This document shows positions 11 to 46,863 of a stretch of 46,875 bases of DNA, in pieces. The notes beneath the pieces were generated by a model that was not told where the DNA came from, did no database searches, and worked only from the letters and a program-made list of their open reading frames with translations. The DNA comes from Armatimonadota bacterium (GTDB lineage Bacteria > Sysuimicrobiota > Sysuimicrobiia > Sysuimicrobiales > Humicultoraceae). Every line of letters starts with the position of its first letter. The first letter of the stretch is position 1. The stretch is taken from contig JBBIOM010000009.1 of NCBI GenBank assembly GCA_037443365.1, forward strand, positions 13,183-60,057, read 5' to 3'. The translations under genes were made by a program, and so were the position numbers.

Positions 11-1360
11 TCACGCCTGACGCTGAAGGTCGTCCATCAGGCGCTTGACGCTGGCCGCGAGGTGGGCGTCGCGGTGAAGCGCCTCGCGCACGCGCTGGCA
101 GGCGTGCATCACCGTGGTGTGATCGCGGCCGCCGAACTCCTCGCCTATGCGAGGCAGAGAGGCGTCGGTGATCTCGCGCGCCACGTACATGGCCACCTGC
201 CGTGGGAAGGCCACGCCCTTGGTGCGGCGCTTGGCGCGCATCTCCTCTACGCGCAGGCCGAAGAACTCGGCCACCACCTGCTGGATGGAGTGGATGGTGA
301 CGACCCTGGCGCGGGCGGGGGGAAGCAGGTCGCGCAGGACGTCGGCCGCCAGCGTTACGCTGATGGGCGCCCGCGTGAGGGAGGCGTACGCGACGACGCG
401 CACCAGCGCGCCCTCGAGCTCGCGTATGTTTGAGTGGATACGCTGGGCGATGAACTCCGCGACCTCGACGGGCACCACGATGCCCTCGCTCTCGGCCTTC
501 TTGCTCAGGATCGCGATGCGCGTCTCCAGGTCCGGGGGCTGGATGTCGGCGATCAGGCCCCACTCGAAGCGGCTCCGCAGGCGGTCCTCCAGGGTGGGTA
601 TCTCCTTGGGCGGCCGGTCGGACGAGATGATGATCTGGTGATTGGTCTCGTGCAGCGTGTTGAACGTGTGGAAGAACTCCTCCTGCGTGCGCTCCTTGCC
701 GGCCAGGAACTGGATGTCGTCTATCAGCAGGACATCCACGCCGCGGTAGCGCTGCCGGAACTCCAGGGTCTTGTCGTCGCGGATGGAGTTGATCAGCTCG
801 TTCGTGAACTTCTCGCTGCTCACGTACGCGACGCGCGCGATCCCCTCTCCGCGCAGCACCCGGTGCCCGATGGCCTGGAGCAGGTGCGTCTTGCCCAGCC
901 CCACGCCGCCGTAGATGAACAGGGGGTTGTAGGCGCGCGCGGGCGCCTCGGCCACGGCCATCGCCGCGGCGTGGGCGAAGCGGTTGCCGGCCCCCACGAC
1001 GAACGTTTCGAAGGTGTACTTGGGCGAGATGTGGGTCCCCTCGAGCACGCGTGACTGGGAGGGCGCCGCCTGGTGGGCGGAAGGCGCAGGAGGCGCGGGC
1101 GCGGCCTCGACGACCGAGATGCGCACTCCCACGTCGCGCCCGACCACGCCGCGCAGCGCCCGACGGATGGGCTCTGTCAGGCGCTGCTCCACCCACTCCT
1201 TGGCGAAGCGGTTGGGCACGGCGAAGTGAAAGACGTCGCCCTGGAGACCGACGGGACGCATCACCCGCAGAAACGATTCGAGGGTGGGCTTGTTTAGCTG
1301 TCCTTCCATCCTGCGCAGCGCCTCGGCCCACAGCTCTGCGGGAGAGACTTCGATCGTCAC
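11..1360 (-). CDS. dnaA: Chromosomal replication initiator DnaA
   Basis: Walker A YGGVGLGKT, LLIDDIQFL, RELEGAL, domain IV FGGRDHTTV. Start moved to GTG at 1360, preceded by AGAGGAG. Confidence 0.98.
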   Translation of the reverse strand: MTIEVSPAELWAEALRRMEGQLNKPTLESFLRVMRPVGLQGDVFHFAVPNRFAKEWVEQRLTEPIRRALRGVVGRDVGVRISVVEAAPAPPAPSAHQAAPSQSRVLEGTHISPKYTFETFVVGAGNRFAHAAAMAVAEAPARAYNPLFIYGGVGLGKTHLLQAIGHRVLRGEGIARVAYVSSEKFTNELINSIRDDKTLEFRQRYRGVDVLLIDDIQFLAGKERTQEEFFHTFNTLHETNHQIIISSDRPPKEIPTLEDRLRSRFEWGLIADIQPPDLETRIAILSKKAESEGIVVPVEVAEFIAQRIHSNIRELEGALVRVVAYASLTRAPISVTLAADVLRDLLPPARARVVTIHSIQQVVAEFFGLRVEEMRAKRRTKGVAFPRQVAMYVAREITDASLPRIGEEFGGRDHTTVMHACQRVREALHRDAHLAASVKRLMDDLQRQA

Positions 1361-1400
1361 GGCCGGCTCCTCTCTGTGCCCGATGCCCTGCTCCCAGTTC

Positions 1401-2192
1401 CTAGGACTTGAAGACCTCGTCGAGGAAGGCGACCCCATCCTCGGTCAGCGTGCGCTTTCCGTGTCCCTTTCCGGTGGCAAGACGCAGGCGTTCCAGGGCC
1501 TGAAGCTCGCGGTACGCGGTGCTGTGGCTGATGCCGAGCTCGTTGGCGATCGTGGTGGGGCCCACCGCCCCCAGCTCGGCGACCAGCAGCAGCACCTTCT
1601 TCTGGCGCGTCGTGATGGAAGGGGCCGGACGGGCCGGCGGCTCCGGGAGTGCTGCCGGCGCGGGATGGTCCTGCTGCACGCGCAGCGTGATAACGGTGCC
1701 GTGGTCCAGGTTGTCCTCTATGGAGAGCGTGCCGCCCAGGAACTGCATCTGCTCCTTTGCGACGGGCAGCCCGCTGCCCACGCCGCGGATGAGGCGGCGC
1801 ATCTCGGCGGTGGCGGTGGAGAAGCCCGGCATCACCGCGCGCTCCTTGTCGGCGATCCCCGGCCCCTGGTCGGCGACGCGTATGGTGTTGCCGTCGTCGA
1901 GGACAGTGATCGTGGCGTTGTGGAAGTAGGCGTGTATCAAGTTCTCGACGATCTCCTTGATGACGACGAACGGGACCCGCCCTCCGCGCTCGCGCGACAC
2001 GGCGTACGTGCGCGCCGCCAGTTCGCCGACGAGCGTATTGAAGTCATCTCCCCGCAGCGAGATGACCCGCGGGGTCGCGAGCGGCGAGTCGTACACCGCC
2101 AGGCGCACCTCTGGCCCGGCCTCGCCACCGGCGTGCGGCGAGTCGGAGCGCCGCTCATCGAGCAACCGCGCGATGATATCCCTGATGGACAT
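1401..2192 (-). CDS. GHKL/HATPase_c ATP-binding protein with C-terminal winged HTH, no HisKA domain
   Basis: N-box EIVENLIHA, G1 DQGPGI, PGFST, G2 GVGSGL; Pro-rich linker; HTH GPTTIANELGISHSTAYRELQAL. ATG at 2192 after GGGGA. Confidence 0.85.
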   Translation of the reverse strand: MSIRDIIARLLDERRSDSPHAGGEAGPEVRLAVYDSPLATPRVISLRGDDFNTLVGELAARTYAVSRERGGRVPFVVIKEIVENLIHAYFHNATITVLDDGNTIRVADQGPGIADKERAVMPGFSTATAEMRRLIRGVGSGLPVAKEQMQFLGGTLSIEDNLDHGTVITLRVQQDHPAPAALPEPPARPAPSITTRQKKVLLLVAELGAVGPTTIANELGISHSTAYRELQALERLRLATGKGHGKRTLTEDGVAFLDEVFKS

Positions 2193-2306
2193 TGAGTCCC
2201 CGCTGCGCCGGAATGGGTTAGCCACCGGTTCGCCGACTCCTACCCCCGGGCCTGTCGAGCACGGGATTTCACGCCCATCCCCCGACGGGCAGCGGAACGG
2301 CACGGG

Positions 2307-2556
2307 TGTGGACAACCCTGTCCGGGCTCACAAGGGATTCGCGCCTCGACACCCTGCCTCCTCTGTCCGGCGCGAGCCCGAAGACTCAGGCCAGAAGCAG
2401 GCCGCGCGCGTTATCCACAGGTGTGGAAAACCCTGTGGACAAGGCGTGGGCTTCCAGGCGCGTTTGCGCCGATTCGGGCGCCTCCCGCCTGCCCTGGCCG
2501 GCCCCACCCGGGACGCGCGCGCGCAAACATGTGGACAAGAAAGGGGGTTGCCCACA
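2307..2556. other. DnaA-box cluster (putative oriC element)
   Basis: TGTGGACAA 2307-2315, TTATCCACA 2411-2419, TGTGGAAAA 2422-2430, TGTGGACAA 2434-2442, TGTGGACAA 2530-2538, TTGCCCACA 2548-2556. Gene orientation diverges here. Confidence 0.85.
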
Positions 2557-2668: not shown

Positions 2669-2809
2669 GTGAAGAGAACCTTTCAACCGAAGAAGCGGAA
2701 GCGCGCGCGCACACACGGCTTTCGAGCACGCATGAGCACCCCGGGCGGGAGGCGGACGCTGAAGCGCCGTCGAGCAAAGGGAAGGCACCGGCTGAGCGCC
2801 TCCGGGTAG
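2669..2809 (+). CDS. rpmH: 50S ribosomal protein L34
   Basis: [25 protein letters not shown] start after GGAGGA. Confidence 0.97.
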
Positions 2810-46785: not shown

Positions 46786-46863
46786 GCCCCCATCGTCTAG
46801 CCGGGCCCAGGACGTCGGCCTTTCAAGCCGGTAACGCGGGTTCGAATCCCGCTGGGGGCACCA
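46786..46863 (+). tRNA. tRNA-Glu (TTC)
   Basis: Acceptor GCCCCCA/TGGGGGC, anticodon arm TCGGC-CTTTCAA-GCCGG, T-loop GGTTCGAATCC, encoded CCA. Confidence 0.96.

Follow-up and report, generated by a model that had tools for sequence, protein, structure and literature searches.

The window analysed here is a stretch of 46,875 nucleotides (nt) of contig JBBIOM010000009.1 (positions 13,183 to 60,057 of the forward strand) from the GenBank assembly GCA_037443365.1 of an Armatimonadota bacterium, placed in Sysuimicrobiota by its GTDB lineage. Directly upstream of dnaA and on the same strand, it carries a gene whose product of 263 amino acids (aa) joins a GHKL ATP-binding domain to a C-terminal winged helix-turn-helix (wHTH), and which is therefore called the GHKL-wHTH gene in the following (Table 1). 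The gene is real, as seen from 1832 homologues found at E ≤ 1e-3 in a word-indexed search and from a confident AlphaFold model built on a 43-sequence alignment (mean predicted local distance difference test score, pLDDT, 91.8). An exhaustive search returned 2153 representatives of 50%-identity clusters at E ≤ 1e-3, of which 325 were found at E ≤ 1e-30. Where the sources give a name, it is only 'ATP-binding protein', 'histidine kinase' or 'anti-sigma regulatory factor', and an Atlas search returned unnamed 'ATP-binding protein' clusters only. The ATG at 2192 was preferred as the start over a longer open reading frame (ORF) reaching 2315 because close relatives start with the same MSIR... peptide at match residue 1. 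The families Bac_DnaA, Bac_DnaA_C and DnaA_N, matched at window 14-1360 (minus strand), identify the neighbouring gene as dnaA (449 aa plus stop, with a GTG start). The 40-nt spacer from the GHKL stop to this GTG carries the Shine-Dalgarno-like GAGAGGAG 6 nt ahead of the start codon and contains no terminator-like site.

The surroundings of the gene in other genomes were examined by a genome scan with a 14-sequence alignment, in which each species was represented by one genome. Counts over 80 loci given below refer to the best 80 of 469 confirmed relatives, which are 37-75% identical to the window protein. Conserved linkage to dnaA across phyla had been named in a first-pass annotation of the sequence as a check on its proposal of a replication-initiation regulator, and a DnaA homologue indeed lies directly downstream, on the same strand, in 80/80 loci. 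Two apparent exceptions with a long gap are explained by a DnaA of 658 aa with an expanded middle region. Such a DnaA is encoded in an Eggerthellales locus (L077:6828-8804), where a low-complexity expansion of about 200 residues lies between the N-terminal and AAA+ domains, and a Slackia locus (L078) has a comparably long gap between the end of the GHKL gene and the aligned portion of DnaA. In the 67 of the 80 loci where the dnaA start could be placed, the spacer that separates the two genes has a median of 18 nt and ranges from -8 to 191 nt. In relatives, dnaA is followed by dnaN and recF.

By record title, the 80 loci belong to Actinomycetota (59, including 14 Coriobacteriia and 12 Thermoleophilia), Bacillota (8), Sysuimicrobiota (4) and Armatimonadota (2), while six are untitled and one comes from a probably mislabelled 'Betaproteobacteria' bin. 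Similar proteins beside dnaA in Coriobacteriia had been mentioned in the first-pass annotation, and this proved right for the 14 loci so titled, Slackia included, all of which have dnaA directly downstream. The nearest relative of the window protein is found in a Candidatus Sysuimicrobiota genome. The titles of three loci, namely 'Betaproteobacteria' (L048), 'Aeromicrobium sp.' (L039) and 'Actinomycetes' (L003), do not fit, and these are probably mislabelled or mis-binned metagenome-assembled genomes. L003 groups with the Sysuimicrobiota-type rows in the GHKL tree, and the protein identities and the rpmH-GHKL-dnaA layout of L048 and L039 match those of loci titled Bacillota or Coriobacteriia.

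The gene rpmH is present divergently upstream in 57 of the 80 loci. Both rpmH and yidC are missing on that side in 15 loci for which the upstream sequence extends over 5.6 kb or more (L027 has genes for thiamine transport, TPK, VanZ and MoeA there). Since the dnaA adjacency holds in these 15 loci as well, the conserved link is to dnaA and not to rpmH. Patristic distances of the GHKL-wHTH protein and of DnaA correlate with r = 0.81 over 65 taxa; in a subset of 44 taxa the correlation is 0.79, as compared to 0.78 for the DnaA-YidC control. The gene tree tracks DnaA as closely as DnaA tracks YidC, which points to an old component of the dnaA operon with vertical inheritance, so that the earlier description of the gene as 'inserted' at this place is misleading. 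No tblastn matches were obtained in 72,556 plasmid or 50,697 phage records, in line with a core gene of the chromosome.

Architecture of the GHKL-wHTH protein

In the AlphaFold model the protein consists of a helix (residues 3-15), a disordered stretch (16-27), a compact domain (28-172), a low-confidence Pro-rich linker and a three-helix-plus-wing unit (195-262). Pfam recognises the compact domain as HATPase_c (residues 77-174; 49.6 bits with a cutoff of 26.4, E 6.1e-13), whereas families of the HisKA, sensor or receiver kind are absent from the Pfam matches of the protein (no HisKA at E ≤ 1). The ORF of 263 aa, its distance of 40 nt to dnaA and the motifs quoted in the first-pass annotation, which lie at residues 80-88 (EIVENLIHA), 108-113 (DQGPGI), 122-126 (PGFST) and 137-142 (GVGSGL), are all as stated there according to the translation and Pfam. 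Its description of a GHKL domain without HisKA, followed by a Pro-rich linker (Pro-rich stretch at 176-192) and a C-terminal wHTH, likewise agrees with Pfam and with the model. The boxes comprise E80, N84 and H87 in the N-box, D108, G110 and G112 in G1, G137, G139 and G141 in G2, and in addition G154, N161 and G165. Among 43 diverse members, N84, H87, G101, D108, G110, G112, G137, G139, G141, N161 and G165 do not vary and E80 hardly does, and hence the Mg2+/ATP-binding boxes are intact.

The N-box Asn, the DxGxG and GxGxG motifs and the alpha/beta sandwich fold place the domain in the GHKL superfamily. The N-box helix is preceded by a family-specific extension of two strands and a long helix, in which Y34, D35 and P41, outside the ATP site, are conserved. 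Residues 1-75 thus appear in the model as a helix, a disordered stretch and a strand-strand-helix element, without a helical hairpin. A weak match of the N-terminus to spectrin SH3 (E 0.004-0.9) is regarded as accidental, since in the model this region belongs to the GHKL domain. Both the whole model and a domain-only model (pLDDT 82.1) match histidine-kinase catalytic (CA) domains and the mitochondrial BCK/PDK kinases best. In Foldseek, histidine-kinase and BCK ATP-binding domains were matched at a probability of 1.00, with query-normalised TM-scores to the CA and BCK structures of 0.5-0.56. The family profile matched KinB, HK853, CheA and CpxA at E values of about 1e-5 to 1e-6 (KinB, 3d36, at 2e-6; on the BCK side the match is 1gjv), and MutL in the N-box and G1 region only (E 3.5e-5, profile positions 46-106).

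The window protein shares all ATP boxes with these kinases but lacks a DHp/HisKA domain, the helix with the phospho-acceptor His and a receiver partner. Its His87 follows the Mg-binding Asn by three residues, a position at which the N-boxes of histidine kinases carry Lys or Arg. A two-component sensor histidine kinase was ruled out as an identity of the protein, as there is no HisKA/DHp domain with a phospho-acceptor His. A GHL ATPase of the GyrB, Hsp90, MutL or MORC kind was ruled out as well, because the GHKL domain is followed by the linker of 20 residues and the wHTH of 69 residues and not by the transducer domain that supplies the catalytic Lys. The affiliation to SpoIIAB and RsbW raised in the first-pass annotation did not hold. 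Likeness to these proteins is seen in the stand-alone GHKL domain of about 145 residues without HisKA, in weak profile matches (1til and 1l0o at E 4e-3) and in the strand-strand-helix order before the N-box helix, which we take to be similar to the SpoIIAB topology. The scores, however, lie below the family thresholds (HATPase_c_2 E 0.13, 12.7 bits against a cutoff of 27.4; TIGR01925 26.5 bits against 135), and the window protein differs in its fused wHTH, its N-terminal peptide and its conserved neighbour dnaA. As the best matches are to CA domains and BCK/PDK, the SpoIIAB and HATPase_c_2 thresholds are not reached and a transducer domain is absent, the domain is a separate, kinase-type GHKL subfamily.

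The C-terminal domain resembles wHTH domains of the IclR, TrmB and Csa3 types in Pfam, NCBIfam and PADLOC. Pfam HTH_IclR was found at residues 200-239 (24.4 bits against a cutoff of 22), and the best NCBIfam and PADLOC matches are Csa3/CasR wHTH models at residues 190-250, where PADLOC matched the wHTH only. The modelled elements are three helices (195-207, 212-219 and 223-235) and two strands (239-243 and 246-249). The recognition helix spans about residues 222-235 (S-x-STAYRE-L), and the wing carries GKR (R247). Conservation of the recognition helix across phyla (0.49) is as high as that of the GHKL core (0.50), and R196, R228 and R247 are nearly invariant among the 43 members. By its predicted structure the protein is thus of the winged-helix class of DNA-binding transcription factors, and DNA binding is predicted for it. 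The wHTH alone had no significant match among the sequences of the Protein Data Bank (PDB), and so no close solved relative. In some relatives the linker runs to hundreds of residues, and linkers of at least 200 residues, often of low complexity, were observed in P0216, P0272-P0279 and P0160 (Atopobiaceae and low-GC lineages). Evidently, the two domains are only flexibly tethered to each other when at work.

A GHKL-like domain followed by a wHTH is also found in DIP2311-type proteins (PDB 3lmm; about 260 aligned columns, Foldseek E 7e-7). In contrast to the window protein, these have chains of 477-555 residues with an extra N-terminal domain, presumably AlbA_2, and their GHKL part is presumably HATPase_c_4. 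Csa3/CasR regulators similarly combine a ligand-binding domain with a wHTH but have a CARF sensor in place of the GHKL domain. To our knowledge, neither 3lmm-type proteins nor Csa3 are linked to dnaA.

The kinase-like fold suggests one alternative to a DNA-binding regulator. SpoIIAB and RsbW hold or phosphorylate sigma factors and their antagonists, and by analogy the GHKL domain might bind DnaA or another initiation protein and hold or phosphorylate it in an ATP-dependent manner, with the wHTH only localising the protein at the origin. Such an anti-initiator or DnaA kinase would agree with the nearest folds and profiles, namely CA domains, the Ser kinases BCK/PDK and, more weakly, SpoIIAB, and with the lack of the transducer domain that a GHL-type ATPase needs. 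The conserved Y34, D35 and P41 could form a partner surface, and the tight, sometimes overlapping spacing to dnaA would favour co-ordinated expression. Nevertheless, we consider this alternative unlikely. The SpoIIAB-type thresholds are not reached, and neither a sigma factor gene nor a STAS anti-anti-sigma or PP2C partner was found among the neighbours examined (rpmH upstream; dnaA, then dnaN and recF in relatives). Longer homologues, when searched for, were long-linker forms and unrelated hybrid kinases and included no fusion to DnaA, which is weak evidence, and the co-evolution signal with DnaA is not above control. The strong conservation of the recognition helix would also be left unexplained.

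At the N-terminus, residues 1-15 (MSIRDIIARLLDERR) are hydrophobic at positions i, i+3, i+4, i+7 and i+8, as in an amphipathic helix; this peptide had gone unmentioned in the first-pass annotation. The window protein's peptide, MSIRDIIARLLDE, is its version of a family motif directly after the start codon, in which two hydrophobic residues, any residue and K/R/Q are followed by two hydrophobic residues (M-K-x-F-F in Coriobacteriia). By the strict pattern, which also admits K/R-x-F-F, the motif is present in 53 of the 80 loci, and by eye in more; it is absent in about a quarter to a third of them. Of 150 cluster representatives 44 were dropped (20 without the N-box pattern, 24 that had a short N-terminus or did not begin with M), and 20 of the 106 usable ones carry the motif, as compared to 0.9% of shuffled N-termini and 0/175 later segments. 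A disordered spacer of very variable length follows. The peptide is strongly basic in Bacillota, acidic in Thermoleophilia (MESFLDRLLAD) and neutral to acidic in the window protein. Since the Bacillota versions are basic and others acidic, the peptide could be a membrane anchor or a docking motif.

If it were a membrane-targeting helix, ATP-dimerised GHKL domains could pair two such helices and two wHTHs and so anchor origin-proximal or DnaA-bound DNA at the membrane through a cycle that depends on nucleotide, reminiscent of MinD with ATP and Noc with CTP, which cycle on the membrane. The enrichment of the motif, the disordered spacer behind it and the basic Bacillota peptides, which presumably resemble the MinD-type membrane-targeting helix, are in line with such an origin-membrane tether. 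However, the neutral to acidic peptides of the window and of Thermoleophilia are unlike classical cationic membrane helices, a substantial part of the loci lack the motif, the peptide could equally dock to a protein, and the dimerisation is an assumption made by this explanation itself. It is therefore held to be improbable.

DnaA boxes and promoter signals at the locus

Allowing at most one mismatch to the DnaA box TTATCCACA, seven hits were found in the window where 1.76 are expected, and none of 100 shuffles reached seven. Five of the seven form a cluster upstream of the GHKL-wHTH gene (2307-2315, 2411-2419, 2422-2430, 2434-2442 and 2530-2538). With the nearest of them 114 nt from the GHKL ATG and dnaA 40 nt downstream of the gene, the gene does lie between the DnaA boxes and dnaA, as had been described in the first-pass annotation. 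The middle three boxes (TTATCCACA, TGTGGAAAA and TGTGGACAA, window 2410-2443) form a near-invariant block in eight Sysuimicrobiota-type relatives. A different three-box block occupies a comparable position in Coriobacteriia (12 upstream regions aligned), where a box pair is also located about 30 nt before the ribosome-binding site of the GHKL gene. In 70 of the 80 loci, two or more boxes with at most one mismatch occur in the 700 bp that precede the GHKL gene, whereas none lies between the GHKL gene and dnaA in 79 of them. Together with the short spacers this strongly suggests that the GHKL gene and dnaA are co-transcribed, as had been proposed.

Two leader blocks are conserved on the minus strand in eight close relatives, GGCGTGAAA at window 2267-2275 and GGTAGGAGT at 2236-2244, with a spacing that does not fit a sigma-70 promoter. 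In 15 Thermoleophilia-type loci (L025-L030, L033, L035-L037, L040, L041, L044, L049 and L052) an extended -10 element, TGCTATACT, is located 10 nt before the GHKL ATG, about 150-240 nt before the tblastn match. With the -10 element this close to the ATG, a nearly leaderless mRNA is expected for the GHKL-dnaA unit. Across clades only DnaA-box words are shared; clade-specific blocks exist, and these are not palindromic.

The dnaA-dnaN spacer contains a 30-nt window of 70-83% AT in 5/5 close relatives (L001, L002, L013, L004 and L006). The upstream box region peaks at only 57-63% AT in these five relatives and at 53% in the window, the overall AT content of which is 31%. In L001 (8190-8389), a degenerate DnaA box and trinucleotides that have A as their middle letter (TAC TAC GAT GAC TAA) come before the AT-rich stretch, and together they look like a DnaA-trio with an unwinding element. 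As the dnaA-dnaN spacer of relatives is more AT-rich than the upstream box region, the unwinding element probably lies downstream of dnaA, just outside the window, and dnaA probably separates the two parts of a bipartite origin. Judging from these relatives, the five boxes at 2307-2538 would form the upstream half of such an origin, similar to that of Bacillus, a DnaA-controlled operon promoter, or both.

The position of the boxes also bears on the possibility that the protein is a bystander. In this case it would have nothing to do with replication, being a common transcription factor or the sensor of another process, and would simply occupy a conserved place next to dnaA. Gene order near the origin is conserved for many unrelated genes (rpmH, rnpA and yidC), the wHTH is generic with no significant match to a solved structure by sequence, and no specific operator was found, all of which would fit a bystander. 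On the other hand, the linkage to dnaA survives the rearrangement of everything upstream in the Thermoleophilia loci, the spacers are operon-like, and the DnaA boxes precede the GHKL gene and not dnaA. A bystander thus appears very unlikely.

On the other side of the box cluster, rpmH (Ribosomal_L34) is divergent from the GHKL gene, with a promoter-like site before it at 2612-2640, and is followed in the window by rnpA, yidD, yidC, jag, rsmG and parA. Rfam gave nothing near the GHKL-dnaA locus. The sole Rfam match in the window is a tRNA gene at 46786-46860.

Table 1. Position of the features of the GHKL-dnaA locus in the window and the basis of their assignment.
Feature	Coordinates	Strand	Basis
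GHKL-wHTH gene, first cistron of the dnaA transcription unit (co-transcription strongly suggested)	1401..2192	-	
N-terminal amphipathic helix, residues 1-15 (MSIRDIIARLLDERR)	2148..2192	-	helix 3-15 in AlphaFold model; motif statistics
Disordered spacer, residues 16-27, length varies across the family	2112..2147	-	pLDDT <50 at 17-21; column identity 0.13; alignment
GHKL (Bergerat-fold) ATP-binding domain, residues 28-174	1671..2111	-	Pfam, alignment, models, fold matches
Pro-rich flexible linker, residues 175-194	1611..1670	-	translation, alignment, conservation
Winged helix-turn-helix, residues 195-263	1404..1610	-	Pfam, NCBIfam, PADLOC, AlphaFold model, conservation
Spacer with GAGAGGAG, without terminator-like site	1361..1400	-	
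dnaA, second cistron	11..1360	-	Pfam
Leader/promoter region, up to the DnaA box nearest to the ATG	2193..2306	-	alignment of 8 close relatives
Cluster of five DnaA boxes	2307..2538	.	consensus scan; alignment of close relatives
rpmH, divergent	2669..2809	+	Pfam

A candidate regulator of replication initiation

We favour the explanation that the GHKL-wHTH gene is the first cistron of the dnaA operon and encodes an ATP-responsive DNA-binding regulator of dnaA expression and/or origin firing, to which we give a probability of roughly 0.45. The DNA binding, its target, the control by ATP and the effect on initiation are inferred here, and the position directly before dnaA in every locus examined makes the protein a strong candidate for a controller of the timing of chromosome replication. 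In the proposed mechanism, an operon of the GHKL-wHTH gene and dnaA (with dnaN and recF next in relatives) would be transcribed from the region rich in DnaA boxes on the rpmH side. The winged helix would contact DNA at the origin or around the dnaA promoter, and nucleotide on the GHKL domain would switch dimerisation or DNA affinity. Expression of dnaA and/or origin firing would in this way be coupled to the nucleotide state of the cell, while DnaA would feed back on the shared promoter via its boxes.

Several observations weigh against such a regulator. The usual task of a GHKL domain of the kinase type is to phosphorylate a partner and not simply to sense a ligand, and the wHTH could be a module that binds protein. 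Apart from the DnaA boxes, no operator was found by k-mer counts over 78 upstream regions or in the alignments of eight Sysuimicrobiota-type and 12 Coriobacteriia-type regions. A mirror-tree comparison over 44 taxa gave no GHKL-DnaA co-evolution signal above the DnaA-YidC control. It is possible that a dnaA promoter lies inside the GHKL gene, and the more distant members beyond the best 80 of the 469 relatives may sit elsewhere. Co-folding of DnaA (42 rows) with the GHKL-wHTH protein (43 rows) gave, in a run without controls, scores of 0.06 and 0.00 against a mark of 0.32 and is uninformative on binding.

DNA-binding regulators that act on DnaA-box regions and modulate initiation include MtrA, CtrA, Spo0A and HP1021. 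SirA, YabA, Soj, Hda, DiaA/HobA and CcrZ are protein regulators of DnaA, and CcrZ has a kinase fold as well. The candidate role of the GHKL-wHTH protein, the control of DnaA, is like that of the latter group, but there is no sequence or domain relationship, and we know of none among them that is fixed upstream of dnaA across phyla. A precedent for an ATP-responsive DNA-binding regulator is AdpA of Streptomyces, described in the dnaA passages of PMC4255298 as a transcription factor that is sensitive to ATP, is reported to sense adenine nucleotides and contributes to the DnaA-mediated control of initiation; the comparable regulators named in those passages are AdpA and ParA/ParB only. AdpA, MtrA, CtrA, Spo0A and HP1021 are response regulators or AraC-type proteins encoded elsewhere, unlike the window protein, which has a GHKL domain of its own and is encoded in the dnaA operon.

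For bacteria other than E. coli, Bacillus and Caulobacter, the control of initiation is little understood. No description of the family, or of a gene fixed upstream of dnaA in these phyla, was found in the full-text literature, a search that did not extend to subscription journals and bioRxiv supplements. What is new is a GHKL plus wHTH architecture with a uniquely fixed genomic position in a candidate initiation regulator. Its position before dnaA and behind DnaA boxes, which for the former holds in every locus examined and across at least three phyla by record title, is about as strong as guilt by association gets in comparative genomics. Members of the family occur in culturable gut Coriobacteriia (Slackia, L016 and L078; Eggerthellales, L077), a class for which genetic tools are reported (PMC9734109), and the question is therefore directly testable.

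In a bolder and rather improbable extension, the family would be a hitherto unrecognised core component of initiation in much of the Bacillati (some Bacillota, Sysuimicrobiota, and Actinomycetota other than the well-studied orders). It would act as an ATP switch, encoded ahead of dnaA, that via the peptide and the winged helix links origin-proximal DNA, or DnaA on that DNA, with the membrane or with a further initiation factor, and that lets go of the DNA depending on nucleotide state, thereby licensing or blocking initiation. If this were true, the protein would be a physical origin-attachment factor of the kind postulated by the replicon model. If the protein is an initiation regulator as favoured above, GHKL plus wHTH would be a new architecture among initiation controllers, and the 'dnaA promoter' of these organisms would have to be read differently.

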